DNA of 60,785 nt from a virus (taxonomy: Duplodnaviria > Caudoviricetes). The stretch is taken from the IMG/VR virus record IMGVR_UViG_3300046725_000023, positions 1-60,785 of that record. One strand, written 5' to 3'. Shown piece by piece: positions 955 to 60,649 of the stretch. The notes under the pieces were generated by a model. That model made no database searches. It was not told the origin of the DNA and saw nothing but the letters and a program-made list of their open reading frames with translations. How positions within the stretch are numbered: the first letter of the stretch is position 1; each line of letters starts with the position of its first letter. A program made the position numbers and the translations under genes.

Positions 955-1548
955 CTCGGTCTCCTCCAGGTCGTCCGTGCTGTTGGTGTCAACCTTACCG
1001 TCTTGACTGTGAAGTGTCAACGTCAGAGCGATTTCGGCTCGGATGTCGGCCAGGTGGCGGAGGGCCAGACGACCCGCCGTGCCCTGCCCGTAGCTCGGGC
1101 GGGTACAGCGGACGGCCGCGTCGTGGGTCATGGTCAGCGCCTGGAACTGCTGGGTTCCGATCGTCCCGGCCTCGTGGGCCGCCTTGATCTCCTCGGCCAC
1201 GACCTCGGCCAGCGCCACAGCCTCGGCCACGGTGCGGGACTGCTCGATCTCCAGCGCCTCGACGTGAGCCCGCTTGACTCCGGCCGCGTCCTCCGGCGCC
1301 AGCCACATCGTCTGGATCGGCGCGGCATCGAACGTGCCAGACGTGGTCTCCACCGTGTACCGGTTGTTCCGGTAGACGTTTGACAGCCCGAATGTTTTGC
1401 CGGTGACCCGAGCGACGTGCACGCCCTCGCCGGTCTTGTTTACCGACGGGAACAGGCCCGTGGTCCCATCGGCGAAGGTCACGACCTGGACGATGATCCG
1501 CTCGTTGATCTGGACTCGGCTGGCGTTGGTCTTTCCGGCGGCGGGCAT
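160..1548 (-). CDS. Hypothetical early protein, in frame with no stop before the SprT-like domain
   Basis: GAGGAG RBS and ATG 1548 (MPAAGK...) downstream of promoter 1589-1617; ORF stays open to 160. Confidence 0.55.
   Translation of the reverse strand: MPAAGKTNASRVQINERIIVQVVTFADGTTGLFPSVNKTGEGVHVARVTGKTFGLSNVYRNNRYTVETTSGTFDAAPIQTMWLAPEDAAGVKRAHVEALEIEQSRTVAEAVALAEVVAEEIKAAHEAGTIGTQQFQALTMTHDAAVRCTRPSYGQGTAGRLALRHLADIRAEIALTLTLHSQDGKVDTNSTDDLEETEMTAFPNDNREPAEGEQAMNATPAEPVNHTGSTVVKVLEKVWSRIRANHPELPEVVIITGSGEGTKWGHFRAESWKVRAEEGAAVSGEPGRRHELFLASEALAKGPTQVLQTMIHEAAHTISRVRGIKDTSRQGRWHNAEFKKAAAELGLEHKSSTADKSHGFSFVTLTTATKERYADLIAELETEIKLTGLLPLWMGGSDQEDERGGERITGKPTKGGEAGGAKSGPMKATCACAEPVIIRLSQKVLDMGVVRCDGCESLFTAA
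992..1020 (-). promoter_or_regulatory. Sigma70-type promoter with TGAC-N8-GTCA site over -35
   Basis: TTGACA-17bp-TAAGGT. Confidence 0.8.
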
Positions 1549-1588
1549 CTCGTTCTCCTCTGTGTGGCGTGCGCTGCTGATATGGAGA

Positions 1589-1617
1589 ACATTACAGGCG
1601 TGACTGTGAACTGTCAA
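1589..1617 (-). promoter_or_regulatory. Promoter with palindromic site
   Basis: TTGACA-17bp-TAATGT. Confidence 0.8.
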
Positions 1618-1652
1618 CCCTGAAGGTCCGGCTGTGAAGTACTTCACAGGCG

Positions 1653-1681
1653 TTGACAGTGCACAGTCATGACTGTAAGGT
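1653..1681 (+). promoter_or_regulatory. Promoter with palindromic site, leaderless into ATG 1688
   Basis: TTGACA-17bp-TAAGGT-6nt-ATG. Confidence 0.8.
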
Positions 1682-1687
1682 TAGGGC

Positions 1688-1933
1688 ATGACAACGACAG
1701 CGAAGCTCAGCAAGACCCAGTTCGCCACGGCGGTCACGGTGCTCGGCCTGGCGGCGCTCAGCGAGACCGGGGAGGTCAGCGAGTACGCGGCCCGCACGAA
1801 CGGCGCCTGGGTCGCGGCCCTGGCGGCGCTGGTCAGCAAGGGCGTTCTGGTCGCCCGGCGCGGCGACTTCCTGATGCCGGAAGGCCCGTACGCGGGCCAG
1901 GTCGTCTCGCAGCTCTGGTACTCGGCGGCCTGA
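1688..1933 (+). CDS. Hypothetical protein (81 aa)
   Basis: Leaderless start after strong promoter, GC-rich third codon positions, downstream hairpin. Confidence 0.7.
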   Translation: MTTTAKLSKTQFATAVTVLGLAALSETGEVSEYAARTNGAWVAALAALVSKGVLVARRGDFLMPEGPYAGQVVSQLWYSAA

Positions 1934-1998
1934 TACGACAAGAGCCCGGCCCGGGTTTCCCCTGGTGCCAGGCTCTCGCCGGTCTCCCCCCCGGAGGT

Positions 1999-2268
1999 CT
2001 ATCCCGCGACGGACGCCAGGTCAGTCCGCGCGCCCTGGCCGGGCCGGGCCTCGCTCCACTCGTCCAGCGAGGCACGCGTGAACACGGGAAGGTTGTACTG
2101 CCCGTCGGCGTGCCGGTCCTCCTCGGCCTGGGGGCCGATGCCGCGCGCCACGTAGCTGGAGAGCGTGTTCCGCTTCAGCCCCAGATACTCGGCGGCTGGT
2201 CCGTAGCCCACGAACCGGTCAGGGATCTCGTCCTGGGTCGTCACGGTTTCACCTTCTCTCGTAGTCAT
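1999..2268 (-). CDS. Small helix-turn-helix DNA-binding protein (AlpA/Xis/MerR-like)
   Basis: GYGPAAEYLGLKRNTLSSYVARGIGP...PVFTRASLDEW; TATAGT -10 at 2275-2280, 6 nt before ATG. Confidence 0.75.
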   Translation of the reverse strand: MTTREGETVTTQDEIPDRFVGYGPAAEYLGLKRNTLSSYVARGIGPQAEEDRHADGQYNLPVFTRASLDEWSEARPGQGARTDLASVAG

Positions 2269-2329: not shown

Positions 2330-2358
2330 TTGACACTTCACAGTCATGCCGGTAATGT
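2330..2358 (+). promoter_or_regulatory. Promoter with palindromic site
   Basis: TTGACA-17bp-TAATGT. Confidence 0.8.
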
Positions 2359-2681: not shown

Positions 2682-2710
2682 TTGACACTTCACAGTCAAG
2701 CCTGTAATGT
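2682..2710 (+). promoter_or_regulatory. Promoter with palindromic site
   Basis: TTGACA-17bp-TAATGT. Confidence 0.8.
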
Positions 2711-3281: not shown

Positions 3282-3288
3282 TTTGCTG

Positions 3289-3317
3289 TTGACACTCCAC
3301 AGTCAAGGCTGTAACGT
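3289..3317 (+). promoter_or_regulatory. Promoter with palindromic site, facing the end of the late operon
   Basis: TTGACA-17bp-TAACGT. Confidence 0.7.
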
Positions 3318-3345
3318 AGTGGACGGTGGAGAAGGTGGCCGCGCG

Positions 3346-3609
3346 CTACGGGGAGGGACAATCCCGGCTCGCTCGGTACTTGACCAGCGCGTCCCGGACC
3401 ACGCGCGCCCGGTCACCGGCCGGACCGGCCACCGGCTCAGGTCCGGCCAGGAACACCGAGGTCATGGCGCACATGTCCGCGTCCTGCTGGCGTTGGTTGT
3501 TGTAGATCCACGCCGCGAACACGCCGGACATCACCAGCACGGCCGAGCCCCAGGAGAGCAGGACCAGCCAGACCGGCCGGGACATCGGTTCGCGGATTGC
3601 CCTTCTCAC
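3346..3609 (-). CDS. Single-TM membrane protein (possible lysis accessory)
   Basis: One hydrophobic helix and two Cys in the C-terminal part; coupled to upstream gene. Confidence 0.6.
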   Translation of the reverse strand: MRRAIREPMSRPVWLVLLSWGSAVLVMSGVFAAWIYNNQRQQDADMCAMTSVFLAGPEPVAGPAGDRARVVRDALVKYRASRDCPSP

Positions 3610-3875
3610 GGCTCAGCCCCAGGGTCCAGCGCTTGCGACGTAGGCGACGAGGAGGCCAACAGCTCCCCCGGCTCCGAGGGCGGCGACGAGAGACTGCCCG
3701 CGATACCGGGTCGTGAGAGCCAGAGTCGCAAGAATCCCGGCCCGAGCATCGTCGCGCTGGAGATCAGCATCAGCGGCCAGGGGCCGGACTTGTAGATGAT
3801 CCACGTCCCCCAACCACCGCCCAGGATGAGAAACAAAACGTCCCGCTGGAGCGGGGGCAGTGCTCGCCTGGTCAC
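3606..3875 (-). CDS. Two-TM membrane protein (holin-like)
   Basis: Two hydrophobic segments and a Ser/Pro tail; coupled start/stop. Confidence 0.55.
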   Translation of the reverse strand: MTRRALPPLQRDVLFLILGGGWGTWIIYKSGPWPLMLISSATMLGPGFLRLWLSRPGIAGSLSSPPSEPGELLASSSPTSQALDPGAEP

Positions 3876-4707: not shown

Positions 4708-6539
4708 TGGCCGGACCGGAGCGCGTCCAGCATCTCGGACCGCTTGTCCTTCCGGGTGCCCAGCACGATCTCGCGCGCCCGCGCAAGCTGGCGGAGCTGG
4801 ACCGTGTTCAGGTCCTCGATCTTGGTACCGGCCGCGATGCCCTCGACCTCCCCGGCCTGGACCCGCTCGCGGCCCGTCAGCGCGGCGGCCGACTCACGCA
4901 GCGCGGCCACGCCCTCCGGGTCCACCCGCTCCCACTCAGCAGCCAGCGCGTCCGTTGACAGTGCATCGTCATCCCCCGGCGCCAGCTCCACATCCACCAG
5001 GAACGGCGGCTCCGGGGAGGTGGCCATGGGCACGAAGTTCCGGACCGGAGAGGTCGAGACGCCCTCGGCCGTGATGGCCCGGACGCGCTCCGGCGGCGCG
5101 GCGATCTCGGTCACGGCCAGCCGGTCGTGGAAGATCTGAATCGGCGCCAGGAACCCCTCGGCCACCAGTTCGTCCACGGCCTCGCCCACGCCGGGCCAGT
5201 CCGGGTGACCGTAGTCGTCCACCGCGATGCGGGCGCCCGGTGCCAGGTACGGCGCCCACTCCACGATGTCCCGCTTCGCGCCGTCCTTCGTGTGGTCGCC
5301 GTCCACGAACAGCAGGCCCACGGGCTTACCGTCGTACGCGGCGGCCACCTCATGCGAGAACGCGTGCACGAGCGTGATGTCCTTCGCGTAGCCCAGGGCG
5401 ACCACGTGATGGAAGGCCCAGCGCCGGGACGCCTCGTCCGTGAACGGCGGATCGTAGACGTTGCCGGGGAGGTCCCACGGGTCGATGCCGGTCACGTGCG
5501 CGCCGTGGCCCTGCCTCGCTCCCCACGCCATCTGGAGGGCGGTCCGGCCGTGGAACACGCCCAGCTCCACGATCTCCTGATCCGCCGGGACGGCCGCCGC
5601 GAAGTCGGCCAGCGCCATCATGATGTCGTCCGGCGTCGCCGCCTGGACCCGCTTAAAGAACCTCGGGGGCTTCATACCCAATCCTCCTCGAATGCCCAGC
5701 CGGGTGGACCGGCCGGATCTCGCAACGGCGGGCCGCGCCGGGCGGCCGGACTTCGGTTCGGCGGCCGGGCGGATCTCGGGCATCCCCGGCCGCAGCTCTC
5801 GCACGGCGGCGATCTGCATCCCCAGGGTCTGCCCTTCCCTCCAGACCATGTACGCGGTCCGGTCCTTGCTGAACTGGTCGCGGTGGTTCACCCGCTGGTA
5901 CTGCTCGTCCGTCTTGGCCTTGCCCGCTACCGGGTGCATGTGCTCGATCCGGATCTCCGGCAGGTGCTTCATCGCACCGGCGCCGCCGTACAGGTCCATC
6001 ATCGAGTTGTCGCAGTACATGTGTTCGACCGGCGCCGGGACCATCCGGCCGAGCGCGCGGACCGCGTCCGCCGTGACAGCCCACTCGGTGCTCAGCTTGC
6101 GGCCCTGGTACCCGTCGTCCCCGTAGACCATGCCGGTGCCCAACTCGGCCAGCTCGGCGAGGTAGACCCTGGCCCAGCCGATCGTCTGGGGGAGGTGGTC
6201 GTCCCCGGCGAACGCCAGCGCGCGGTACGCCTTGACGTCCGCGAACAGCTTGGCCACCAGGTTGAGCTTGTGGACCATCGGCATCCACTCGTCCATCTCG
6301 ACCAGCTTGACCGCGCTGGTCCCCTCGGGCGCCTCCGCCGTGAACGACTCGACCACGCGCCGGTACCCGCCGATCTCCGGGTCGTCGGAGTCCGCGATGA
6401 GGATCAGGTCCGCGTGGTCCCACGCGTTCGTGAAGTCCCAGGCGCTGATGACCTTCTCGATGTTGCCGGGTCGGCCGCGCGTCGGGACCAGCACGCCCAG
6501 GCTGGACCGGCGGCCGGGCTCGGGCAGGGCGTCAGTCAT
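4704..6539 (-). CDS. GT2-like glycosyltransferase fused to class I SAM methyltransferase (Methyltransf_24-like) and a Rho-N/HeH-like tail
   Basis: VLVPTRGRP...FAGDDH; VELGVFHGRT, LLFVDGDH, IAVDDY; C-terminal DLNTVQLRQLARAREI...KRSEMLDAL. Confidence 0.8.
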   Translation of the reverse strand: MTDALPEPGRRSSLGVLVPTRGRPGNIEKVISAWDFTNAWDHADLILIADSDDPEIGGYRRVVESFTAEAPEGTSAVKLVEMDEWMPMVHKLNLVAKLFADVKAYRALAFAGDDHLPQTIGWARVYLAELAELGTGMVYGDDGYQGRKLSTEWAVTADAVRALGRMVPAPVEHMYCDNSMMDLYGGAGAMKHLPEIRIEHMHPVAGKAKTDEQYQRVNHRDQFSKDRTAYMVWREGQTLGMQIAAVRELRPGMPEIRPAAEPKSGRPARPAVARSGRSTRLGIRGGLGMKPPRFFKRVQAATPDDIMMALADFAAAVPADQEIVELGVFHGRTALQMAWGARQGHGAHVTGIDPWDLPGNVYDPPFTDEASRRWAFHHVVALGYAKDITLVHAFSHEVAAAYDGKPVGLLFVDGDHTKDGAKRDIVEWAPYLAPGARIAVDDYGHPDWPGVGEAVDELVAEGFLAPIQIFHDRLAVTEIAAPPERVRAITAEGVSTSPVRNFVPMATSPEPPFLVDVELAPGDDDALSTDALAAEWERVDPEGVAALRESAAALTGRERVQAGEVEGIAAGTKIEDLNTVQLRQLARAREIVLGTRKDKRSEMLDALRSGQ

Positions 6540-8389: not shown

Positions 8390-9465
8390 AGCTCCCGTAC
8401 CTGAAGCGTCGTATCCCCGGCCAGGTCGAGCGTGACCGCGTCCACCGCGAGAATCTGCCCGTCGTGGCTGACCACATCCCCGGCGGAGATCGTCGGGTCG
8501 TACGAGCGGACCAGGTTGTATGTGGCGCCAGCGCCCTGTTCCTTGGCCATCACGGCCAGGGCGACGGCCTGAGCCAGCCCGGGGTAGTTCCAGTTCAGCG
8601 CCGCGTTCGTGTAGAACGCCGTGGACCGGCCGTACGGGCTGCCACCCGGGCCGGTGCCCGCGTACGTCGGGCTTGACGGATCACTGTCAACCACGACCGC
8701 GTGGACCGGTGTCGCCCCGTCCGGCGTCTCGCCGCGCGCCACGATCACGTTGGGCGGGCGGGTGTCGAAATCGGCGGACAAGCTGCTGACCATGTCCAGC
8801 GGGTACGCCGCGTTCGGGTCGGTCACGGTGGTGATCATCTGGAGCTGGCCCACCCGGCTGTAAACCAGCGTGCGCCGGTAGCCGATCAGGATGTCCTGGA
8901 GTTCCTTCCACGGGCCGGACCCGGTCTCCAGCCCCAGGATGCGCTTCTCGCCGACCGTCTCCCCCGCCGTCGGGATGTTCGGGTTGGAGCCGGTACGGCT
9001 CAGGATCACAGAGTTGACCATGGCGGCCAGATCGGTGGACGCCGCGATCACCTTGGGCGCCTCGAACTGGTATCGCTCCACCCGGTCCGAGAGGTCCACC
9101 AGCGACACATCGACCACGCGAGTGCCCGCGTCCAGGCGCGTACGCGACGAGGCGATATCGAACACGCCGTACGGCACCGTTGACACTGAACCGTCAAGCA
9201 GCTCCAGGCCCAGCTCCACCGTGACCTGGGTACCGAACGGTGTGAGCAGGTCGCGGGGGGACCTCGGGATCAGGTCCGCACCGGCGAACGACAGGCGCCC
9301 GTCCCACCGGGAGTTACGCCGGGTGTCCTGGGTGAGCGACCCGCTGACCGGCTCCAGCTCCAGGCTCACGCCTCCCCTGGAGACCGTGAACCGCGAGAAC
9401 CGGCGATAGCTGGTCGGCGTGCCGAGAGCCGCCTGGTGGCGGGCCGAGCTGAAACGACTGCTCAC
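8386..9465 (-). CDS. Minor tail protein, baseplate hub-like (DUF5047-like)
   Basis: SGSLTQD...LLTPFGTQVTVELG...VPYGVF; PNVIVARGE; YDPTISAGDVV. Confidence 0.7.
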   Translation of the reverse strand: MSSRFSSARHQAALGTPTSYRRFSRFTVSRGGVSLELEPVSGSLTQDTRRNSRWDGRLSFAGADLIPRSPRDLLTPFGTQVTVELGLELLDGSVSTVPYGVFDIASSRTRLDAGTRVVDVSLVDLSDRVERYQFEAPKVIAASTDLAAMVNSVILSRTGSNPNIPTAGETVGEKRILGLETGSGPWKELQDILIGYRRTLVYSRVGQLQMITTVTDPNAAYPLDMVSSLSADFDTRPPNVIVARGETPDGATPVHAVVVDSDPSSPTYAGTGPGGSPYGRSTAFYTNAALNWNYPGLAQAVALAVMAKEQGAGATYNLVRSYDPTISAGDVVSHDGQILAVDAVTLDLAGDTTLQVREL

Positions 9466-12278
9466 AGGAACTCCCCCGGCTCCACGGTGACCGGCCAGGG
9501 CTGGCGGATCATCTTGACCTGAACGACTTTCACGTCCGGCGCCGGTGCCCGTACGGTCCAGCCCTGGGGAGCGAACCAGCCCGGCGTTCCGGCGACCGGT
9601 GACCAGTAGACCAGGTCATTGCTGAGCATCGTCTCCAGTTGCGCGATGGCGGGCATCCCCTCGACCGCGATGGTCAGCGAGATGTCCTCACCGGCGGTCG
9701 TGACCGAGACCGAGGGCAACCCGCCGTCCAGCGGCACCGTGTCCGAGGTCAGCCGGGGGAACTCATGGTTGTGGTCGGTCGTGACCGCCATCCGGTCCGT
9801 GAAGCTGCTGAGCCGGTCGAGCCCATCGTCGTACTCCAGCGAGGGCACGGTGGCCTCGCTGAACTCCGTGATCTTCAGCTCGGGGATGGTCAGCGGGTCG
9901 GCGTCGATCGTGCCGTCCAGCCGGACGAAATGGACGTCATGGTACGGAGGCAGGTGGCTGGAGCTGCTCGTGTTGCCCGAGCTGCTGGTGGACACACCGG
10001 GGGAGGCGCTGCTCGTGCTGCCGGAGCTGTGCGTGTGCCCGGTCGTCGGGCTGCTCCCGAGGTCGCCGAACGAGGGCGCCTCGAACGATCCCGTGTTGCT
10101 CGTGCTCACGTTGGTGTCGTGGCTGTGAGCGTTGACCGAGTGGTCGTGCGCCGGGGTCGTGTGGCTGTGCGAACTGGAGCCGCCCGTGGAGTTCACGGAG
10201 TCCGAGCCCTTGTCACGGCAGAAGTAATTGCGCATGTCCGGCGTGCCGCTACCGCCGTTGCAGACGGTCAGCAGCGAGGAGATCGAGGCGACCGCGCTCA
10301 GGTGCAACCCGATGATGCGGGTCTGCTTTCCCCCGCCGGTGTTGCGCAGCACGCGCAACCGCCGGTGCGGCGGCTCCAGGTTCACGCTGCTGGTGGATCC
10401 TCCACTGCCTGAGTCCGTGGCGCCTGAGTTGATGCTCACCACGTCCATCGGGTGCGTGTGGCGCGGCAGCCAGCGCGGGGAGCTGGAGCCGTAGCCCGCT
10501 TCCTGGGAGCTGGACGGGTTGCTCTGCCCGGTGCTGCTGATCGAGTGGTCGTGACTGATCCCGGTATGGCTGTGCGAAGCGATCGAGTGCGTGTGGGTTG
10601 CGGCTCCGGACGTCGCGCCACCGTTGCCAGCAGCCGCCGCGCCCTTCAGGAACCGGCCCAGGCTGGTCGCGTCGTCGGTCCAGCCGGACACGGCCTCCGT
10701 GGCCCAGCCGAGCGCGCCCACCGGGTAGCCCGGCTCGGACCCGGCCGACTGAATCCAGATCACCTCGCGGGTGGCGGGCAGGTTGTTCGCCGCCGCCGCA
10801 CTGGGGGAGCTGGAACCGGACGTCATCGCCGCCTTAGAGCCGGTCGAGCTGGGGCGGCTGTGCGTGTGCGGCTGGTCCGCCTGGGGCTGGCTGGCGCCGT
10901 TGAACCGCGCGCTGGTGGTAGAGCTGTTCGAGCTGCCCGTGGAGCCGCCCAGCGAGTGGCTGTGCGCCGCGATGGTGTGCGTGTGGCCGCCGGTCGTGTG
11001 GCTGTGCGTCGTCGCTCCCCCGGTGGCCGTGGGCGCGGCCGTGCCGCTGGAGCCGCGAGGGTAGTAACCGTCCAGCGCCGTGACCCGCGTCCAGCCGGAC
11101 GGGATGCTGGCGGCCGTGCTCGGCCAGCCTAGGATCATGCCGCTCGGGATCGAGTCGGGCAGATCCACCAGGATGCCGATGTACCCGAAGTAACGAACCC
11201 GGTACGTGATGTCACAGGCGGCGCTTGACGTTTCACAGTCACCATCGACCTGGACCGGCTGGGGGTCGAGCTGCGGAATGGCCAGGTCCAGGTACGAACC
11301 GTTCAGCCCGTCCGGCACCACGGCGATGCGCTGGTCCCCGGTGCAATCCTCGCGCCAGACCTCGGCCACCACGTAGTCGTTGTCCCAGGTCTGGCCGCCC
11401 GGGTTGACCCATTCAACCCGGTACCCGCCGAACTCCGGTGTCACGCTGACCAGCGGCGGAGAGGGCGGGGGGACCGTGTTCAGGACGTCGAACGTGATCG
11501 TCTCGGCGTGCTCGAACGGGTCCGCTCCCCGGATGGTCGAACGGACCGAGAACACGGCGTAGTACGAACCGTCCTCCAGGACCACGGTCACCGGGATGGC
11601 CGCCGGTGGCGTGCCGCTCCCCGAGGAACCCATGAGCCCGTGGTCCGTGGAGTCGAATACCTCCACCGACCAGTCCAGCGCGGGCAGCCCGTCGTACGCG
11701 GGAACCCCGAAGAACAGCGTGGGCTGAGTCGTGTCCGTGACGGTGCCGCCGGACTGGTTCACCCCGGCGTTGTCGCGCACCTCGGGGGAGTAGTCCGGCT
11801 CGGCCCGGCAGTCGATATCGACGTAGACCTCGGCCGTGTGGAGCTGCGTACCGTCCGGGTTGACCCTCGGCCAGCCGCCTCCGATGTTGATGTCGTCCAG
11901 CGCGCCCGCCGTGCTCAGGCCGTAGGACGCCAGCGACGTCCAGTCGGTCACCTGCTCGGCGAACGATGACGTGACGTTGACGGTCTTGTACGTGAGGTAA
12001 GGGGTCGATCCCTTCCCCAGGTCGATGTCCTCCAGCATCGTGCCGGAGTCGCACTTCAGCCGGACCCGGCCCCGGATCAGGTGCCGCTGGTACCCGGCGG
12101 ACGGGGTGTGCGTCGCTACCCGCAAGCTCCAGTTGTCGCCGTAGCTGGCCAGGGGGAACGAGATGTACGTGGCGTCCGAGTCGTCCGCCGTGACCGCGTT
12201 CAGCGTGCCGGACGGCACGGTCGTGGCCGAGCCGGTCTCTTGGATCGAGACCGGACGGCGGACGTCGATTATCGCCAC
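9462..12278 (-). CDS. Minor tail protein with collar-like and HxH fibre repeats
   Basis: IPSGW...YYPRG, CNGGSGTPDMRNYF, many HTH/HSH tripeptides; paralogue of 12310-15720. Confidence 0.75.
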   Translation of the reverse strand: MAIIDVRRPVSIQETGSATTVPSGTLNAVTADDSDATYISFPLASYGDNWSLRVATHTPSAGYQRHLIRGRVRLKCDSGTMLEDIDLGKGSTPYLTYKTVNVTSSFAEQVTDWTSLASYGLSTAGALDDINIGGGWPRVNPDGTQLHTAEVYVDIDCRAEPDYSPEVRDNAGVNQSGGTVTDTTQPTLFFGVPAYDGLPALDWSVEVFDSTDHGLMGSSGSGTPPAAIPVTVVLEDGSYYAVFSVRSTIRGADPFEHAETITFDVLNTVPPPSPPLVSVTPEFGGYRVEWVNPGGQTWDNDYVVAEVWREDCTGDQRIAVVPDGLNGSYLDLAIPQLDPQPVQVDGDCETSSAACDITYRVRYFGYIGILVDLPDSIPSGMILGWPSTAASIPSGWTRVTALDGYYPRGSSGTAAPTATGGATTHSHTTGGHTHTIAAHSHSLGGSTGSSNSSTTSARFNGASQPQADQPHTHSRPSSTGSKAAMTSGSSSPSAAAANNLPATREVIWIQSAGSEPGYPVGALGWATEAVSGWTDDATSLGRFLKGAAAAGNGGATSGAATHTHSIASHSHTGISHDHSISSTGQSNPSSSQEAGYGSSSPRWLPRHTHPMDVVSINSGATDSGSGGSTSSVNLEPPHRRLRVLRNTGGGKQTRIIGLHLSAVASISSLLTVCNGGSGTPDMRNYFCRDKGSDSVNSTGGSSSHSHTTPAHDHSVNAHSHDTNVSTSNTGSFEAPSFGDLGSSPTTGHTHSSGSTSSASPGVSTSSSGNTSSSSHLPPYHDVHFVRLDGTIDADPLTIPELKITEFSEATVPSLEYDDGLDRLSSFTDRMAVTTDHNHEFPRLTSDTVPLDGGLPSVSVTTAGEDISLTIAVEGMPAIAQLETMLSNDLVYWSPVAGTPGWFAPQGWTVRAPAPDVKVVQVKMIRQPWPVTVEPGEFL

Positions 12279-18685: not shown

Positions 18686-18748
18686 GAGGCCCAGCCTACG
18701 TGCCCCATCGATCCGGACCTAGGGGGCACTTCAGCTAGGCTGTCCGTC

Positions 18749-42390: not shown

Positions 42391-42403
42391 TGACGGTGCA
42401 CTG

Positions 42404-42664: not shown

Positions 42665-42693
42665 ACATTACAGCCATGACGGTGAAGTGTCAA
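42665..42693 (-). promoter_or_regulatory. Promoter with palindromic site
   Basis: TTGACA-17bp-TAATGT. Confidence 0.8.
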
Positions 42694-48061: not shown

Positions 48062-51000
48062 TCACTTGGTGTAGCACATCCCCCAGGACGTGCCGGTCTT
48101 GCTGACGTCCGCCATGATCGGGACGCCCTTCCAGTCGAACGTGAGTGCCTCGACCACGGCCCGGCCGATCTCCTCGGCCCGCTCGACCGGCGCCGAGAAC
48201 ACGATCTCGTCGTGCACCTGAGCCCGCAGCATCGGCAGGATCTCAGCGGGCAGGCGGAGCAACCCCTCCATCATGATGTCCCGGGCCGCGCCCTGGCCCA
48301 TCAGCGCCGGACCCTGGGTGTGCGCCCGCCGGGGATCGGCGCGCATGAGCCGCCCGAACCCGTTGTCCAGCAGGTCGCCGGACTCCGCGATGGCGCGTAC
48401 CTCGGTCTGCCACTCCACGAGGCGGGGGAACCGCTCGCGCATCGAGGTGTCGAACTGGCGGACCAGCCGGGGCTCGATCTCTTCCATCTGGCTGATGGCC
48501 GCCAGGCCGCGCCCGTAGTTCCAGCCGTGGCCGATGGCCTTGGCCTTCTCCCGGTGCTTCACATCCCCGAACAGCGCGATGGCGATCTCGGCGTGCGGGT
48601 CGTCGTGCTTCAGCATCTCGATGTACGCCTGGTCCTGGCTGAGTCCGGCGACCGCCCGCATGTCGACCTGGCTCAGGTCGGCGGACATGAGTACCTCGCC
48701 CTCGTCGGGCAGGAACACGTCGCGCTCGACGTGACGGCCGCCGCGCTTGCCGAACACGGTCAGCCCCGGGGAGGTGACGGACCAGCGGCCGGTGGCCTGC
48801 TCGAACCCGATCTTGGGGTGGACCCGGCCGTCCGGGCAGAGGTGATCGAGCGCGGTCTGGTAGACCGAGCGGGCGCCCACGATGCGGTAGACGTCCTTCG
48901 CGATGGCGACCACGCCGGGCAGGTGGTGGTACTCGCGGCCCAGGTGGAGCATGTGGTCCGAGCCGACCTGGAACTCTCCGGACTTCTCGGTCCTCCAGAA
49001 CGACGTGGCGCCCTCGCGCCGGAGCGCCTCCTCCAGGGCGGCCTTGCCCGCCTTGGTGGCCAGCGGGCTGGCGTACGCCTTCCCCTTGGCGTCCGTCGTG
49101 GGGATGCCGTAGTTCTCGGCCAGCCGGGCCATGGCGTCCGCCTTGACCTTGCGGACGCCCTCGACCCGTTCGGTCAGCAGCTCCTGATCCACCTTGAAAC
49201 CGTTGTGCCGGATCTGTGCGGCGATGGCGGCCACCCGGTGCTCGCGCACCAGGTAGTCCGGCACGGTGCCGCCCAGCCGCTCCAGCAGCGCGGCGTGCAG
49301 GCGCCGGGACAGCTCGACGTCCTGGCGCATGTAGCCGATGAAGTCGGCCGCGTCGCTGGCCCGCTCCGGGTCCGGGTCGCTGGTGTCGTACGGGATGGCG
49401 TCCCAGCCGCCGTACCTCTTGGCCAGCAGGCCGGACACGTCGGTCAGCTTGTCGCCGAGCCCGTACGCCGGGCCGAGCGTGCCCAGGTCGTACCGGCGCT
49501 GTTGGTCCACGCCCTTGTCCCGGGCCATCGGCGGGTCCACGAACCGCGCCGCCAGCAGCGCATCGAACAGCTTGCCCTCGGCCGCCATCCGGTGGATCTC
49601 CGGCATGGTGATGGTTCCGGCCCGGACCAGCGCGGGGAGGTCGAACGCCATGATGTTGTGGCCGGTGACGGTCGCCGCTCCCCAGAACCGCGAGGTGACG
49701 TTCTCGGCCACCGTGCGGGTGTCCGGGCCGGTGAAGTCCTGGACCGGCTGGTCGTCGGCCGCCGTGGCGCCGATGTGCACGTACTCGGCGCCGGGCACCC
49801 GGTAGAGGTCCGCCGCGTCGCCGGTCTCCAGGTCGAACGTCAGCAGCTCACTTGACGGTGCATTGTCAGACCAGGCCATCCCGTCGCCGCCGTCATCGCC
49901 GGTCGGGTGCTGGATCTTCTCCTGGCGGCCGACCGGCGGCCGGACCTCCTCGTGACCTTCCCCGTCCGTGTCCGACTCGTCGGCGCCGCGCGCCTCGCCG
50001 TGCTCGTTCTCCGGCGCCGGGTCGGGCTGCGGCTCATGCCCGCACACGTTCGGGTGGCAGGCGATCCACCCACTGGCGTCCGCCACGCCACCATGCAGCG
50101 AGCAACCCAGCTTTCCGTCCCAGGCCGGTGACTCCGGCTCGGGCTCGGGCGTCACCGGCGGCGGCTCGGGCGGCTGGGGAGCGGCACCGTCGGCGCCCTC
50201 CTCGAACACGCGCCACACGCTGACGTGGCCGTGAGCGAACCCCTGGCGCTCCACCCAGAGCTTGCCGTACCGGCGACCGCTCAGCCGCGAGTACGCCTCC
50301 CCCAGGGCCTTGCCGTACGCCTTGTCCTCCGGGTCGTCCAGCTTGGGCGGCGCCATGTACCCGGCCACGTTGGCGCGAGCCTTCGCCTTGACGTCGGCGG
50401 TCTTGAACGGGTTGTTGCCGAACGTGCGCCGCAGCCACTCCAGGTGACCGGCCCAGTACTGGGTATCGAAATCGGACTCCGAACGCCACACCTTCAGGTT
50501 GTCCAGGAACCCGGTCATCCCGGCCACCTCCAGGATGCCGCCGGTGATCTTCTCCCAGGTCTCGAACGATCCGAACGACACGCCGCGTTTGGGCCGGGGC
50601 TGGCCCTTGGCGAACCAGGCCCGGACCAAGGTCAGGATGGCGGTCATGATCTCGGCGCGGTTCTTCCGGGTCCACTCCGGCAGTTCCAGGCCGGACTGAC
50701 CGGGGTGACGGAACGAGGAGGACGGCCGGTCCTGCGGGTTGGCGTACTTGGGCCGCAGCGCGATCCGGTAGACCCGGCGCGTGAGGTCCCCCCGGACCTG
50801 GACCTGGTTGCCCAGCGAGATCCACGTGATGACGTTGGGGAAGTTCGCCATGGTCGAGACGCCCAGGATGCGGTCCTGCCAGGTGGCCGCCGTGAGGGCC
50901 TGTGCCAGCGGCGCGCCCTCGACCGTGTGGGCCTCATCGAACACGAAAAACTCGGCGCCGGTGCGGAACGCGGCCGTGATCTGCTTACGGAGTTCGTCGG

Positions 51001-52515: not shown

Positions 52516-53262
52516 TTACGCCTGGGTCTCGGACTGGACGGGGGGAGTGGGGGGACCGTACGGGAACGGAGCGCCCACGATGTCACGGACCTTGCGGACC
52601 GAGCTGGCCAGCCGCTCCGGGTTGGTCTCGCCGCCGTCCAGGATGATCCGGATGTCGTTGCCCATCACCACGCCCGCCACCCGGCCGATGGTGCGGCTCA
52701 ACTTCTGGATCTCGTGCTGAGCCTCGTGGAGCGCGGTCTCGGCGGACTCCGTCCGGTGGCCCGCCACGGCGACCTGTGCCAGCGCGGTGGCCTCGTTCTT
52801 CTTGCTGATCTCCAGCAGCCGGTCCCGATCGCGGCGCTGGCTGACCAATGCGGCCAGGTCGTCGGTCGCCTGGTCCAGGGCCTTGTCCCGCTGAGCGACG
52901 AGGGCGCGCGACTCCTCCAGCTCGGTCCGCAGCTTGGCCGCCACCTTCTCGGCGCTCTCGGCCCAGGTCTGGTTCTTGTCGGCGCGCTGCTGCTCGGTCT
53001 TGCGGTCCACGTCGTACAGGTGGACCTGTCGCTCCAGGGTGGCGCGTGCGGCCTCGCGCTGGTCGCGCTCGATAGTCCGGCGAACCAGTTCGCTCTCCAG
53101 CTCGGCGATCCGGCGCTGGAGGGGCTTAGCCACCAGCTCGGCCTCCCCGGCCTGTGCGTCGCCCACCTCGGCGGCCGTGTAGAGCCGCTCTGACATTGCA
53201 TCGTCAAAGGTGACCGTCACGGTCACGCGGTCCGCGTGGACCTCCGCCAACGTCCTCACCAT
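52516..53262 (-). CDS. Coiled-coil protein
   Basis: GGGGAGG RBS, heptad pattern; promoter TTGCCA-17-TAAGGT at 53330-53358. Confidence 0.7.
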   Translation of the reverse strand: MVRTLAEVHADRVTVTVTFDDAMSERLYTAAEVGDAQAGEAELVAKPLQRRIAELESELVRRTIERDQREAARATLERQVHLYDVDRKTEQQRADKNQTWAESAEKVAAKLRTELEESRALVAQRDKALDQATDDLAALVSQRRDRDRLLEISKKNEATALAQVAVAGHRTESAETALHEAQHEIQKLSRTIGRVAGVVMGNDIRIILDGGETNPERLASSVRKVRDIVGAPFPYGPPTPPVQSETQA

Positions 53263-55420: not shown

Positions 55421-55490
55421 GGCAGTTACCTTACCGTCCCGCCTGTGAAGTGTCAAAGAGTGGTGCCGGTCAGTTCGTGACAGTGCACTG

Positions 55491-55793
55491 TCAGGGGGTC
55501 GGCACCTCGGGGAGGTCGGCCGGATAGACCGCGTCCCACGAACCGGCGACACGGACCCACTCGACCACGCGGCCGTGCTTCTCCAGCCAGCGCTCGACGG
55601 CGGGCCACCCGGCGGCCGTGGGCACCTGGCCCGAGCCGGTCAGGTACCAGAGTCCGCCGGTCTTCAGCGCGGCGTAGGTGAACACCTTGGGCGGCGCCAT
55701 GCCGCGCGTGTCCTGTGCGTCCTCCTGGCGGTCGTACCGGATGCCGAGCACCAGCACGGTGCCGTTCGGGAACTTGCGGGTCAGCTTGAACAT
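55491..55793 (-). CDS. Hypothetical protein
   Basis: GGAGAGG RBS; FTYAALKTGGLWYLTG. Confidence 0.7.
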   Translation of the reverse strand: MFKLTRKFPNGTVLVLGIRYDRQEDAQDTRGMAPPKVFTYAALKTGGLWYLTGSGQVPTAAGWPAVERWLEKHGRVVEWVRVAGSWDAVYPADLPEVPTP

Positions 55794-56368: not shown

Positions 56369-56585
56369 GAGGGCCTCCTCTGTTTGTGCGCTGCGCTGTG
56401 TGCTGTCAGTTGTTGGTGCGACCCGGCCGGGCTTGGGTCTGCGTCCCGTGGAGACCGGCCCGGCCGGGCCGAGCAGATTCTGGCGGGCTGCTCCCCCTGT
56501 CGTGCATCGGCTCTCTTAACCCCAGCCGCATAGGGCGTCCGCATTGAGTTGATCAGACCGGTCTTGTGCGAACCTCGGACCGCTC

Positions 56586-56654
56586 GCGCTACGCCGGGAC
56601 TCGAACCCGGACATCCCCCGTGCACGGGGTGCTCTGCCGTTGAGCTACGTAACG
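56586..56654 (-). tRNA. tRNA-like RNA with non-canonical anticodon arm (identity undetermined)
   Basis: Acceptor CGTTACG/CGTAGCG, TA-GCTC-AACGGCA-GAGC D arm, CCGGG-TTCGAGT-CCCGG T arm, anticodon arm CCCCG-TGCA-CGGGG; no CCA. Confidence 0.75.
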
Positions 56655-56720
56655 CCGGGCCAGCCGCGAAACAGGCCCGGGGTTGCTCGGCCTAGGGGGT
56701 CCGTCGGCCTTGCGGGGACT

Positions 56721-56749
56721 ACGTTACAGGCATCGCTACCTGGTCGCAA
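56721..56749 (-). promoter_or_regulatory. Promoter for tRNA-like/SSB region
   Basis: TTGCGA-17bp-TAACGT. Confidence 0.65.
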
Positions 56750-56765
56750 CCTTGACACATCACGG

Positions 56766-57944
56766 TCAAGAGCTGGGGTTCTTCGCCTTCAGGTGCTTGG
56801 GAACCGTGATCGTCATCCGCCGGTAGGACGACCGTTCCGTGACCGCCTCCGCCACCTCGGGGTAGTCGCGCTTCAGCGCCTCCACGCTGATCCGGGTGGA
56901 GCTGACCGCCGGGTAGCTGACCACCTTGCTGTCGCCCAAGTAGGCCGCTGCCGCGTCGCCGGTCCACATGCGGAACATGTTCTTCAGTTCGTCCAGGTCG
57001 GCCTCCGCCTTCTTGCTGGCGGCGAGGGCCTTCTGGTAGTCCTTCAGCCACTCCTCGGCATCCGAGGGGAGGTCGGTAACGGGCCTCACGACCACCGGGC
57101 TGATCTGCTTCAGCAGTTCCTCGGTCTTGGGGTGCCGGAAGTCGTGCATGGGGATCTCGTCCCCCAGGATGTTGGTCACCCAGAACCGCTCGGCTTCGTC
57201 GGCCAGCTCCCGGAACCACTCCGGATCGAAGTGGATCTCCACCGTGAAGAACTCCCGCTCGCGGCCCATCACGAGGCACCCGAGGTAGGCGCGGTCCAGG
57301 CCGATGATGCCCATCTGCCACTGGCACTGAGCCTGGTAGTTCAGCGGCGCCGAGCCGGTGCCGAGCCCGCCCGGCCGGATCGTGCCGGACTGCCACTCGG
57401 ACCCGTCCCCGGCGGTCTTGCACTCGATGAGCGCCTCCGCCTTCCAGCTCCGGGCCTTCGTGGCGAACCGGTCCGGCGTCACCCGGAGGAACGGTTTCTC
57501 CGGGTTGGCCCAGAGACCTCCCCCGAACCGCGACACCATGCCGATCTCGTCCGCGATCTTCTCGGCCACGACGTCCTCCAGCCGGTGCCCCCACTCGATG
57601 GGCGCGCCGGTCAGCTCGGCGTCCGGCTCGGTCGCGGTCTTCTTGCGGTAGATCGAAAACGCCGTGTCGTACTCGGAGATCCCGACGAGGGCGGCCACCT
57701 CGGACCCGCCGATGCCGTCCAGCCGGGCGGCCAGCCACGCCTCACGACCGGCGCACTCGGGGAGGATCAGCCGGGCCGGGCTGTCGCGGACCTGTGCGAA
57801 CCGGTGCACCGGGTGCTGGCAACCCAGCCGCCCGCCGGACCGCGCCAGATAGTTGTCCACCTGGCGAGCCTGGAGGGCGGCGCGGCCAGCCCGCTCGCGC
57901 GCCCGGATCTCGGTAGGGGTGTACGCCACGGACACGTCGCTCAC
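56766..57944 (-). CDS. YqaJ-like (lambda exonuclease family) recombination exonuclease
   Basis: WLAARLDGIGGSE, WGHRLE, TPDR...IECKT, YQAQCQWQM. Confidence 0.9.
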   Translation of the reverse strand: MSDVSVAYTPTEIRARERAGRAALQARQVDNYLARSGGRLGCQHPVHRFAQVRDSPARLILPECAGREAWLAARLDGIGGSEVAALVGISEYDTAFSIYRKKTATEPDAELTGAPIEWGHRLEDVVAEKIADEIGMVSRFGGGLWANPEKPFLRVTPDRFATKARSWKAEALIECKTAGDGSEWQSGTIRPGGLGTGSAPLNYQAQCQWQMGIIGLDRAYLGCLVMGREREFFTVEIHFDPEWFRELADEAERFWVTNILGDEIPMHDFRHPKTEELLKQISPVVVRPVTDLPSDAEEWLKDYQKALAASKKAEADLDELKNMFRMWTGDAAAAYLGDSKVVSYPAVSSTRISVEALKRDYPEVAEAVTERSSYRRMTITVPKHLKAKNPSS

Positions 57945-58380: not shown

Positions 58381-58742
58381 CAGAAGTGCCCACCCATCGG
58401 TACGTCGTCCGGCCAGCTCTCGGTGGCCATAGCCATCACTCGGGCGCGCATCGAGCGGCGCCCGGTCATCGGGTATTCCTCGATCGAGTCGAGCAGCATG
58501 TCCGCCTCGTCGCGGACGGTGCCGGACTCGATCTCTTTCAGCAGAGCGGCCAGCGCGGCCGGGTCCGGCCGGTGATCACACGGGACCATCCCCAGCCCTC
58601 GCGCGCAGCACCCGAACCACGGCGGCGCCGTCGGGTCCTTCCCCCGCTGTGCCTTGCAGGACGCCAGGGTGGACCCGCAACCGACGCACGGGGCCGCCTG
58701 CTCGATCGCCTTACGGCGCCGCTTGATCAGCTTCAGGTCCAC
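58380..58742 (-). CDS. Cys-rich hypothetical protein
   Basis: CVGC...C...CC...CDH. Confidence 0.6.
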   Translation of the reverse strand: MDLKLIKRRRKAIEQAAPCVGCGSTLASCKAQRGKDPTAPPWFGCCARGLGMVPCDHRPDPAALAALLKEIESGTVRDEADMLLDSIEEYPMTGRRSMRARVMAMATESWPDDVPMGGHF

Positions 58743-58745
58743 CTC

Positions 58746-59252
58746 TCACGCCTCCAACTTGATCTTGGTCAAGGACTCTCGGTTCACCATGGGGAGCACG
58801 AACGGGGCCTGGTCGAACTGGTCGCTGGCGGCCACCCACAACCACCAGGCGTCACAGGTGTTGTCGTCCCCGCCGAACTCCACTCCGCCGCGCTTGTACG
58901 CCTCCACGGACATGACCAGCTTGTTCGAGCCGACTCCGCCCGATCCGGTGGCGTACTTCTTCAGGCTGCTCGGGGGCAGCGTGGCGTACGGGATGCCCTC
59001 CTCGATGAGCATCGAGCGGACGGCGCCGTGCACCATCCCGGTGATACCGGCGCTCATGCTCTTGTTCAGGTAGCCCTCGATGAGCACGAACCCGTGGCCC
59101 ATCACGTACTCGCGGACCTGGTTGCGGATCACCACGAGCCGGTCGTCCCGCGTGCCCTTGGTCTTGATCAGGTGCCAGCACGGGCCGCCGTCCGGGTCCG
59201 TGTGGCAGACGCCGGTACCGGTCATCGAGAGGTCCAGCCCGGCGACCTTCAC
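58746..59252 (-). CDS. RuvC-like Holliday junction resolvase
   Basis: VAGLDLSMTGTGV, VLIEG, PSSLKKYATGSG...K, DDNTCDA. Confidence 0.85.
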   Translation of the reverse strand: MKVAGLDLSMTGTGVCHTDPDGGPCWHLIKTKGTRDDRLVVIRNQVREYVMGHGFVLIEGYLNKSMSAGITGMVHGAVRSMLIEEGIPYATLPPSSLKKYATGSGGVGSNKLVMSVEAYKRGGVEFGGDDNTCDAWWLWVAASDQFDQAPFVLPMVNRESLTKIKLEA

Positions 59253-59674
59253 CGGCTCGGACGACAGTCGTAGAAGTGCGGCGGCACGTGGTGCTGGCAC
59301 CGGTAGCCCTCCGCCGGGACCTGAACGCGGGCCTCGCCGATCGATCCGTCCGACGCCCGATCGCGGTTCATCTCGACCGCGAGCTGTGCCGCGTCCTTCG
59401 CGCTCAGGTTGCGGACCATCTCCGGCGTGGGCAGGACCGGCCGCCGCGCGGTCGCCAGCTCCTCGGCCATGCCGAGCGAGTGAAGCACCATCATCAGGCC
59501 CACGAACGCCGGGAGCGGCATCTCCACGTGGCGCACCTCGGCCTGTGGCGCCAGCTCGAACTCGGCGCAAGCGCGCGGCTCGAACGAGGCGAACTGGTAC
59601 TCCACCTGAAGCTGTCCCTGGAGCCAGTCCCACTGGCGCCTGGTCAGATCCTTGACTCTGATTCGGGTCCGCAT
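59249..59674 (-). CDS. Hypothetical protein
   Basis: GGAGGGG RBS; promoter TTGCAT-18-TAAGGT at 59714-59743. Confidence 0.6.
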   Translation of the reverse strand: MRTRIRVKDLTRRQWDWLQGQLQVEYQFASFEPRACAEFELAPQAEVRHVEMPLPAFVGLMMVLHSLGMAEELATARRPVLPTPEMVRNLSAKDAAQLAVEMNRDRASDGSIGEARVQVPAEGYRCQHHVPPHFYDCRPSR

Positions 59675-59774
59675 TCGGTCCCCTCCCCTGTTCGGTTCTT
59701 GCTGTCTGGTAAAACCTTACCGTACCGACTGCAAGGTATGCAACCCAGGGGAGGGGTCAACCTGTTTGGGCTGC

Positions 59775-60095
59775 TCAGTACGCTTGCTCTCCCAGGACGA
59801 ACGCGCGCCACTCGGGGTTGCACTCGCGCGTGATGCGCTCCAGGACCGCGCGTGCCGCCGGGCTGGCGTGCTCCTCGTCGGCCGCGACCTCGCGCAGCAT
59901 TTCCGCCAGCGGGGAGCGCTCCGGCGGGCTCTCGGTCAGCGCCAGCGTGGCCAGGCCCAGCCGCTGTTCCTCGGCTCCTCCGCCCTCGGTCACGTAGATC
60001 GACGGGCTGTCGGACCCGTCGCTGGCGGCGCGCACCTCGATGACCGTGTACGGCGTGAGCCCGAGCCAGAACTCCCGGAGTTCGACATCGGCCAT
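59775..60095 (-). CDS. Hypothetical protein
   Basis: MADVELREFW...; TGATG coupling. Confidence 0.6.
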   Translation of the reverse strand: MADVELREFWLGLTPYTVIEVRAASDGSDSPSIYVTEGGGAEEQRLGLATLALTESPPERSPLAEMLREVAADEEHASPAARAVLERITRECNPEWRAFVLGEQAY

Positions 60096-60580
60096 CAGAC
60101 GGTCACCTTGCTCAGCACGCCGCGCCCGATCAGGTCCGAGATCGTGGCCGCCGCGAGGGCGTGCTCCTCGTCGCTCAGCTCCTCCCACGGGACCACCTCG
60201 CGCGGTTCCTGGCGCACGTACGCCCGGTGGATCTCGCGGGCCAGTTCCTCGGCGCCGGGCACGCCCGGCCACCGGTGCCGCAGCAACGCGCTCAGGTCGC
60301 CCACGATGCCGTCCCGGGGCACGATCTCGTCCCGGCCCTCCAGGACGTCCACGTACCGGCTCAGCGCGTCCACGAGGGTCGTGGGCTCGCCCTCGGTCAG
60401 GTCCAGGATGGCCTCGCGATCCATCGAGTCCAGGGCGTCCATCGTGTCCACGACGTGCCGCCTCTCCTCGCCGGTCTCGGCCACGATCGCGCGGATGGCC
60501 TGCTCTCGGACGAGGGCGCGCTGGACCGTGCCCAGCTCGGTGGTCTCGGAGAGCCACTTCTCCAGGTCGATCTCGGTCAT
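60095..60580 (-). CDS. Hypothetical protein
   Basis: GGGGAGG RBS, MTEIDLEKW... Confidence 0.65.
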   Translation of the reverse strand: MTEIDLEKWLSETTELGTVQRALVREQAIRAIVAETGEERRHVVDTMDALDSMDREAILDLTEGEPTTLVDALSRYVDVLEGRDEIVPRDGIVGDLSALLRHRWPGVPGAEELAREIHRAYVRQEPREVVPWEELSDEEHALAAATISDLIGRGVLSKVTV

Positions 60581-60620
60581 ATCTGCCTCCCCTAAAAGTG
60601 GGCCTCTCCCACCATGGATT

Positions 60621-60649
60621 ACATTACCGTCATGACTGTGATGTGTCAA
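60621..60649 (-). promoter_or_regulatory. Promoter with palindromic site
   Basis: TTGACA-17bp-TAATGT. Confidence 0.8.

Follow-up and report, generated by a model that had tools for sequence, protein, structure and literature searches.

A family-wide network of TGAC-N8-GTCA sites in phiAsp2-like phages: possible docking sites for a phage-encoded dimeric protein

Streptomyces phage phiC31 is a temperate phage that has a serine integrase and whose repressor gene is known, and it reportedly carries conserved inverted repeats (CIRs), an inverted-repeat operator that recurs in intergenic positions genome-wide. We report here on a dispersed dyad word, TGAC-N8-GTCA, in the IMG/VR virus record IMGVR_UViG_3300046725_000023; the whole record (60,785 bp) was analysed and is called the window below. 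The closest published analogue of this word appears to be the 17-bp dyad repeat TGTTCGGNNNCCGAACA of the Cluster O mycobacteriophages, Corndog and its relatives (PMC4351075, PMC6439249; these papers and the others below are cited from excerpts). Dispersed dyad repeats in such non-lysogenic phages have been in print since 2015, their function and binder unknown, and a dimeric binder was predicted by the authors (PMC4351075). The stoperators of Cluster A phages are another point of reference, being proposed to block both the initiation and the elongation of transcription (PMC9283540). We find that the TGAC-N8-GTCA network is real, selected and family-wide.

A dispersed dyad word and its conservation

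The window has an estimated completeness of 100% and a G+C content of about 70%. Its closest named relative is Actinoplanes phage phiAsp2 (76.5% identity across 42% of the first 20 kb), with which its gene order is collinear over the full length, as a circularly permuted reverse complement. The gene map relies on our own codon-usage gene calls, which give 80 genes, mostly on the minus strand, and 9% of non-coding DNA.

Exact copies of TGAC-N8-GTCA number 30 in the window, against a mean of 1.05 and a maximum of 4 in 100 dinucleotide-preserving shuffles, none of which reached 30. A sequence-only reading of this DNA had listed 30 start positions, and this list turned out to be exact and complete. 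When the spacing was scanned from N0 to N15, N8 gave the 30 copies and every other spacing 0-3; fragments of the same motif also head the list of over-represented 8-, 10- and 12-mers in this genome. Ten sites lie strictly within gene calls, against a mean of 0.34 (maximum 3) in 300 synonymous-codon shuffles, so that the count is not matched under the codon-preserving shuffle that the same reading had proposed as a check. The synonymous-codon control gave a similar picture in three relatives (13 vs 0.26, 12 vs 0.73 and 15 vs 0.20). The other 20 sites are mostly non-coding, although non-coding DNA is such a small part of the genome, and neighbouring sites are 53-5171 bp apart, in an array that is dispersed over the whole genome. 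The extension to TTGAC...GTCAA, present on both flanks in 9/30 sites and on one flank in 18/30, and the two spacer classes, RRTGCAYY and ACTTCACA, are as first described; an example of a site duplex is TTGACAGTGCACTGTCAA. One-mismatch copies are enriched in no genome (9 in the window vs 23.4 in shuffles), and the GenBank record of phiAsp2 has no such motif annotated among its 162 features.

In phiAsp2 the word occurs 36 times. A promoter 17-mer retrieved 89 stretches from IMG/VR, and ten records reached in this way have 16-32 sites each, against 0-1 for a reversed-pattern control. These ten are biased toward having the network; ten further records, reached only via protein homology, are unbiased in that respect, and five of them carry 13-29 sites and five 0-3. 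The copy number is 16-32 in 12 of 13 related complete or partial network-bearing records. Four of the site-poor records reached by homology (G013, G014, G015 and G017) are 99-100% complete, and structural genes are common to site-poor and network genomes. The network-free genomes form perhaps three lineages, and their whole early-gene module differs from that of network genomes.

Positions are conserved as well as numbers. In late genes, the sites stand at the same codons across relatives, written with rare A/T-ending codons (xxT GAC ... xxG TCA). The network-free genomes G013, G015, G017 and G021 encode the same or similar residues at the sites of g36 and g12 with GC-ending codons and have no site there; at the g12 site 9181, for example, LLDGSIS is spelled with GC-ending codons. 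Between genes, network relatives have sites in the intervals g1-g3 (9/9), g24-g25 (7/7), g21-g22 (8/9), g56-g59 (7/7) and g64-g67 (9/9), and network-free relatives have none in any of the five. Such constancy of codons and intervals, set against network-free relatives that use GC-ending codons, argues strongly that selection acts on the DNA word as such. Neither variant half-sites nor other inverted repeats were enriched in the network-free relatives. Conservation in related phages, which had been named as a check, thus bears the network out, with 36 copies in phiAsp2, 13-32 in relatives and positions held.

Ten sites are coding and mostly lie in late genes; an eleventh, at 1004 in g1, is grouped with the promoter sites below. 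The ten are listed here without strand:

4956-4971: site in g8 (methyltransferase-domain protein), absent at this place in alignable relatives
8674-8689: site in tail gene g12, kept in 5/10 network genomes
9181-9196: site in g12, CTT GAC GGT TCA GTG TCA, kept in 9/10 network genomes
11226-11241: site in g13, where the alignments of relatives are gapped
13522-13537: site in g14, kept in 6/10 network genomes
18593-18608: site in the N-terminal codons of g15 if its start is 18685, as in phiAsp2 pas27; found in 6/10 network genomes, 140 nt upstream of the 18749 gene
19557-19572: site in g16
32603-32618: site in g36 (Mu F-like head protein), GTT GAC ... CTG TCA, in 10/10 network genomes and 0/3 alignable network-free relatives
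49853-49868: site in g67 (primase-polymerase fusion), absent at this place in relatives
53191-53206: site near the start of g68, absent at this place in relatives

In the network-bearing record G016 (L216-L219), we also noted a second over-represented palindromic word, approximately GCATCCTAGGATGC, with 7-11 copies and an enrichment of up to about 800-fold. This word may form a second array of docking sites.

Promoter sites and site architecture

The actinobacterial promoter consensus is TTGACA-N17-TAnnnT, and our assignment of promoters is based on this consensus and on location before genes. In eleven sites of the window, the word supplies both the -35 box and the spacer of a SigA-type promoter, and these promoters are near-identical, TTGACACTTCACAGTCA-N6-TAAnGT; each has TTGACA, a spacer of 16-18 nt, TAnnnT and a position before a gene. 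In these promoter-type (P-type) sites, TTGACA, the -35 hexamer, doubles as the left half-site, and its right-hand partner falls within the 17-nt spacer. A twelfth site, 46622, is promoter-like with a degenerate -10, so that the earlier count of twelve sites on promoter -35 boxes was about right. Pooling 76 P-type sites from 8 genomes gave the consensus gTTGACACTTCACAGTCAwGsCkGTAAnGT, with a 17-nt spacer in 72/76. When promoters were defined without regard to GTCA, 91 out of 129 had GTCA at +13 to +16. The P-type sites stand 18-71 nt ahead of start codons and are oriented toward the following gene, and two of their transcripts, that of g2 (1688) among them, are leaderless or nearly so. The twelve sites, and a palindrome that lies between two of them, are as follows:

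1004-1019 (-): P-type site inside the g1 coding sequence, promoter reading TTGACACTTCACAGTCAagacggTAAGGT, at the same place in G007
1601-1616 (-): P-type site driving g1, -35 plus spacer
1654-1669 (+): P-type site for g2, near-palindromic in its core; TAAGGT is at 1676-1681 and the g2 start codon ATG at 1688, which makes the transcript leaderless
2331-2346 (+): P-type site driving g4, divergent from g3
2683-2698 (+): P-type site driving g5
3290-3305 (+): P-type site antisense into the end of the late operon (g6), with no convincing plus-strand open reading frame (ORF) after it
26090-26105 (+): P-type site driving g25
28035-28050 (+): P-type site driving g30
31702-31717 (+): P-type site with an 18-nt spacer and the -10 TACGTT
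42677-42692 (-): P-type site driving g57
46622-46637 (-): P-like site upstream of g64 with the poor -10 TCAGGT, in the g64-g67 interval that has a site in 9/9 relatives
60633-60648 (-): P-type site driving g80
1632-1649: perfect 18-bp palindrome CTGTGAAGTACTTCACAG, made of the spacer word CTTCACAG and its inverted copy, in the gap that separates the divergent promoters of g1 and g2, at the same place in G002

Two observations concern what follows these promoters. At 3290-3330 (+), a full P-type promoter is directed antisense into g6 and the genes upstream of it, which are the last of the late operon, an arrangement also seen in phiAsp2, and it may drive an antisense RNA; the ORF at 3283-3795 (+) was rejected as a gene, its translation looking out of frame and the opposite-strand g6 having a third-position G+C (GC3) of 0.90. 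Several P-type promoters share a leader with a small hairpin on their 3' side, G(A)GGGGGACA(A)GCCCC(C)TC, at about 2368-2390, 2720-2745 and 42625-42650, which may be a 5' stability element or a regulatory one.

Nine further sites are intergenic. Five of these adjoin promoters that have no internal site, including one at +1 of the capsid promoter, and the remaining four of the five stand 3 (56753), 6 (40097), 21 (55478) and 39 nt (37774) upstream of the -35. In the P-like promoters near 55478 and 37774, GTCA is replaced by other bases. Three intergenic sites (22650, 28525 and 42391) come 1-5 nt before G+C-rich hairpins, and in six of the nine the first bases are the TGA stop of the upstream gene. 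These sites, with strand where one was assigned, and a neighbouring tRNA gene are:

22650-22665: site on the TGA stop of the major tail gene g22, with a G+C-rich hairpin 1 nt on; 8/9 relatives have a site in g21-g22
26016-26031 (-): site at about +1 of the promoter of capsid gene g24, which has a conserved extended -10, GGTGaTACGAT, at 26038-26048
28525-28540: site on the TGA stop of g31, followed by a hairpin between convergent genes
37774-37789: site on the TGA stop of g46, followed by a hairpin and a P-like promoter without GTCA (37706-37734)
40097-40112: site 6 nt upstream of the -35 of the promoter TTGTGA-N17-TAAGGT (40119-40147)
42391-42406: site on the TGA stop of g57, with a terminator-like hairpin 2 nt on
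55478-55493: perfect 16-bp palindrome on the TGA stop of g71, 21 nt upstream of a P-like promoter without GTCA (55428-55456)
56753-56768: site on the TGA stop of g73, 3 nt upstream of the -35 of TTGCGA-N17-TAACGT (56721-56749), before tRNA-Cys and g72
56585-56655 (-): tRNA-Cys (anticodon GCA), found by ARAGORN and Rfam (46.6 bits), just downstream of the promoter that adjoins site 56753

The gene g31 (28538-30097, minus strand; 519 amino acids, with a phage tail repeat-like domain), which site 28525 flanks, has a homologue in 0/13 relatives compared and looks like a lineage-specific insertion.

Promoter and non-promoter sites agree in design. The symmetrised consensus of 139 non-promoter sites pooled from 8 genomes is TTGACAsT(G/T)(C/A)AsTGTCAA, and the promoter version fits it at all but one or two positions; we therefore treat both as one site family. 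Among relatives, the outer TGAC/GTCA and the N8 spacing are constant and the inner eight bases vary, being RRTGCAYY in the window and phiAsp2 and ACTTAAGY or ACGTAAGY in G002, G007 and G016. Counted over 172 non-promoter sites, positions 5:12, 6:11 and 8:9 form Watson-Crick pairs in 64, 52 and 45 cases vs 75.8, 54.1 and 55.6 expected, and only 4/172 are perfect palindromes. The halves do not covary, which indicates that each half-site is read independently. Asymmetric cores switch orientation between homologous sites of the window and phiAsp2. This lack of covariation, the position of promoter sites upstream of their own transcription start and the Rfam search, in which no family was matched except a tRNA, together suggest that the word is read as duplex DNA, as by a dimeric protein.

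Candidate binders and possible readings

Six-frame searches of the window for tyrosine and serine integrases (PF00589, PF00239, PF07508) gave no match at E<=1, and PF00589 and PF00239 searches of five complete relatives gave no integrase match, in agreement with the earlier statement that this phage has no recognisable integrase. The partition families PF02195 (ParB_N) and PF13614 (ParA-type ATPase) likewise had no match at E<=1 in six frames of the window, and no repressor family was matched among 70 window proteins scanned against Pfam. No full or multi-copy prophage was found in 185,579 species genomes (596 Gb), where the promoter 17-mer had 16 single hits, two of them in Actinoplanes. These searches lend no support to the plasmid or carrier state that had been suggested for this phage: neither partition protein was found, nor any multi-copy prophage. 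The phiAsp2-like family looks lytic, or at least non-integrating.

The word is essentially absent from host chromosomes. Two 11.3-Mb Actinoplanes genomes contain 2 and 1 copies of TTGAC-N8-GTCAA and 0 and 1 of a control pattern, which argues that there is no host regulon and makes the earlier suggestion of a host transcription factor with such a regulon unlikely. One Actinoplanes genome carries an island of about 10.5 kb adjoining ychF (G011:C4:175600-186200; L130-L131), in which one of the two Actinoplanes matches of the promoter 17-mer falls. The island encodes an XRE-type helix-turn-helix (HTH) regulator and a large serine recombinase, together with homologues of g23 (67% identity) and of the N-terminal half of g67, and of the four TGAC-N8-GTCA sites in a 120-kb stretch, three lie within it. 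The island looks like a satellite of phiAsp2-like phages and, if it is one, the sites that it carries favour a trans-acting phage factor. The second Actinoplanes match of the promoter 17-mer is at L112:5878-5947.

We searched for the binder with the Pfam scans of the 70 window proteins, in which only two, g3 and the product of the 18749 gene, showed DNA-binding-like signals. A third gene, g1, drew attention by its distribution:

1999-2268 (-): g3, small MerR/excisionase-type winged-HTH protein, candidate binder, with the site-free promoter TTGTGG-N18-TATAGT at 2275-2304 and a leaderless ATG
18749-19177 (+): 18749 gene, homologue of phiAsp2 pas26, candidate binder, leaderless, with the -10 TAGGCT at 18736-18741
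160-1548 (-): g1, 462 amino acids, with an HExxH SprT-like region and a C-terminal Cys cluster

The g3 sequence matches PHROG 597 'DNA binding protein' (2.9e-15) and Pfam HTH_17 with 21.6 bits, under the cut-off of 27. Its structural model (predicted local distance difference test, pLDDT, 72.9) has RdfS (8dgl) as the top Foldseek match (E 0.011, prob 1.0), followed by NmlR, Pukovnik Xis, RacA and BldC; the predicted fold is a winged helix of the Xis/MerR N-domain class. The 18749 protein is modelled (pLDDT 84.7) with an N-terminal beta domain and a C-terminal three-helix HTH-like end; the best match of the latter is the Spo0J/ParB DNA-binding domain (Z 6.0, root-mean-square deviation 2.4 over 56 residues), with KorB at Z 4.6, both weak. 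For the whole protein, the best Foldseek E-value was 0.36 and a PDB sequence profile search gave no match. The genes g2, g3 and 18749 all appear to be leaderless, with the -10 standing 6-7 nt ahead of the start codon (1653-1688 +, 2275-2304 -, 18736-18748 +), and the site-free leaderless promoters of g3 and the 18749 gene are conserved in all relatives examined, network-free ones included.

The sequence-only reading had proposed these two HTH proteins as the binders. Both are indeed real, conserved and HTH-like. Their presence does not explain the network: 13/13 records of 90% completeness or more carry both genes, four of these records have no more than 1-3 sites, and presence alone does not predict the network. 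In one such genome, G017, GTCA is found in 2/3 P-type promoters, and the two proteins, as candidates, could bind the few promoter sites left there. The small gene g2 (1688-1933) was rejected as a specificity-determining binder; its position holds at least three unrelated families among relatives, unlinked to the core type.

The only sizeable protein whose presence tracks the network is g1, which occurs in 9/9 complete network records and 0/4 complete network-free ones, and also in the window and phiAsp2 (11/11 complete network genomes). Together with g1, the small membrane protein g6 and the HNH protein g44 are each found in at least 8/9 network relatives and 0/4 network-free ones. The partial records G009 and G019 have sites and no g1 in the part available. 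A homologue search with g1 returned 311 matches, none informatively named and nearly all unnamed or hypothetical, and an Atlas search with its N-terminus gave no usable match. The correlation of g1 with the network is a lead and not a proof.

The reading that we favour, and to which we give about an even chance, is that a dimeric protein, encoded in this phage lineage, docks on the 30 sites as duplex DNA, and that these serve mainly in transcription control. A selected, family-wide network is best read, we infer, in terms of one dimeric protein, as had been proposed at the outset. The two independently constrained half-sites (TTGAC-A-s-T-k) would be recognised by one dimer. On a P-type promoter, this dimer would compete with sigma region 4 at the -35 and shut the promoter; repression is preferred over activation because these promoters already have a consensus -35 and correct spacing. 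From the five adjoining sites (3, 6, 21 and 39 nt upstream, and capsid +1), the dimer would act on promoters without an internal site, and at gene ends and in late genes it might be a roadblock, an insulator or part of a reservoir that is titrated as the genome replicates.

Several points weigh against docking sites for a phage-encoded dimer. Conservation could not be demonstrated for five coding sites (4956, 11226, 19557, 49853 and 53191). A generic TATAAT-based promoter and terminator scan found no promoter and no terminator excess; such a scan is blind to these promoters because their TAAnGT -10 scores only 3/6. The spacer positions G14, C21 and G23 are more constant than GTCA and are common to the network-free G021, which means that part of the promoter conservation has another cause. 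The HTH helices of g3 and of the 18749 product, the only two proteins with DNA-binding folds, are near-identical in G017 (3 sites) and G021 (1 site), and both proteins are no more than candidate binders. Finally, a near-global repression that includes capsid +1 is odd in a phage without integrase, partition genes or known lysogens.

Other readings have to be weighed against this one. A protein that organises, condenses or anchors the genome, in the manner of RacA on ram sites or of KorB and ParB on palindromes, would make the promoter overlap secondary; we hold this to be unlikely. The g3 model matches MerR-type winged helices, with the RacA-DNA complex 5i44 at rank 15, and RacA reads TGACGCCGGCGTCA, a TGAC-N6-GTCA word, in 25 dispersed regions (PMC4914108); for its C-terminal part, the 18749 product has the Spo0J/ParB DNA-binding domain as its nearest structure and resembles KorB as well, the sites are spread genome-wide at intervals of 53-5171 bp, and the Cluster O authors came to a similar conclusion for their repeat (PMC4351075). 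However, about 17 of the 30 sites are within or beside promoters, a Z below 8 is in the background range by the tool's own description, no ParB_N or ParA domain was found in the window, and g3 and the 18749 product are also present in network-free relatives. We judge it improbable that a host protein reads the sites, be it a transcription factor or sigma region 4 of the host RNA polymerase. Each half-site is a consensus -35 TTGACA, a phage binder could not be pinned down and the network-free relatives (G+C 59-68%) may infect other hosts; but no host regulon is seen in the two Actinoplanes genomes, the network genome G003 is at 64% G+C, so that base composition does not split the groups, and the inner positions (A5, T7 and their mirrors) are constrained too, which a bare -35 would not need.

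A target for a phage DNA-processing enzyme (a site-specific nickase or HNH endonuclease, a modification enzyme or a primase start) is very improbable. It would accommodate g44, a homologue of the phiAsp2 HNH endonuclease found in 8/9 network relatives and 0/4 network-free ones, and the cluster of methyltransferase and glycosyltransferase genes of the window, but the latter genes are in network-free relatives as well, symmetric cutting would break the genome, and the word built into promoter -35 and spacer is left without an account. It is hardly credible that the word is an RNA hairpin for processing, stability or termination, although several sites come just before terminator hairpins and the capsid-promoter site would be at a transcript 5' end: we rejected this reading on the lack of compensatory pairing between the halves, on the match of no Rfam family except tRNA, and on the 11-12 promoter sites that are upstream of the start and outside their own transcript. 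Just as little probability attaches to there being no binder at all and to one promoter cassette having been copied, with chance look-alikes elsewhere. The 11-12 near-identical promoters with shared leaders would suit such copying, but the 10 in-gene sites against 0.34 expected would not, nor would coding sites that have no -10 and use the same rare codons in up to 10/10 genomes.

There is a slim chance that the docking sites work as a copy-number timer in an obligately lytic family, with one self-encoded dimer and 16-36 sites per genome. The dimer would shut early promoters and block late operons up to the point at which the replicating genomes supply enough sites to titrate it away. The island with its integrase in Actinoplanes chromosomes would use the same sites, satellite-style, to eavesdrop on the phage regulator, and the binder would be a protein of no recognisable DNA-binding family, for example the N-terminal domain of the SprT-like g1.

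Whatever the binder, this family offers a clean handle on such arrays: many sequenced relatives, among them a natural control set that has the late genes and the two HTH proteins but not the sites, sites pinned by rare codons that can be silently recoded, site-containing promoters, and a cultured member, phiAsp2 on Actinoplanes. Knowing the binder would make clear how a lytic actinophage keeps its dozen or so identical promoters in step, and might show a general role of such arrays. The stereotyped 29-bp promoter is, moreover, a ready-made genetic part, a strong promoter with its operator, for use in Actinoplanes and related producers.

Comparison with known systems

The analogy with stoperators and similar arrays that was drawn from the outset is apt, and each of the known systems resembles this one in part. 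Among MerR-like proteins, RacA of Bacillus subtilis places a winged helix on a palindrome that ends in TGAC/GTCA, in its dispersed ram regions, but RacA is a host chromosome-anchoring protein and its word has N6 spacing in place of N8 (PMC4914108). Unlike RacA, g3 is only a candidate binder and occurs in network-free relatives too. In the lytic mycobacteriophage D29, the small MerR-family protein Gp36 represses early and late genes; the sites described in the excerpt are GC-rich direct repeats at few places, with no dispersed dyad (PMC12266134). Networks of the ParB/KorB type go with an encoded ParB_N protein, and PF02195 had no match here.

Cluster A stoperators of the L5 gp71 type are likewise present in more than 20 copies of one site, at promoters and in short intergenic gaps (PMC9283540), and placement both on and off promoters is found in the window as well. 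They differ in being asymmetric 13-mers that are read by a monomer and oriented with transcription (PMC9283540), whereas the sites described here are dyads with no fixed orientation, many of them in genes. Cluster A phages are also temperate, with an integrase and an immunity repressor (PMC9283540); neither an integrase nor a gp71-like repressor was found in our searches.

The likeness to the Cluster O repeat goes further. According to the excerpts, there too more than 30 dyad copies lie between and inside genes of an actinophage genome of about 60-70 kb, no integrase, parAB or stable lysogens are reported, and methyltransferase and glycosyltransferase genes stand among the structural genes, as they do here (PMC4351075, PMC6439249). 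Dispersed dyad copies, integrase and partition genes not found, and conservation across the cluster all describe the phiAsp2-like phages equally. The two differ in geometry, 7-N3-7 there vs 4/5-N8-4/5 here, and in placement: most Cluster O sites are off predicted promoters, whereas about one third of those in the window are promoter -35 plus spacer and five more adjoin promoters. To these systems our analysis adds network-free relatives that act as a control, evidence that the two HTH candidates do not suffice, the correlation of g1 with the network and a satellite-like island.

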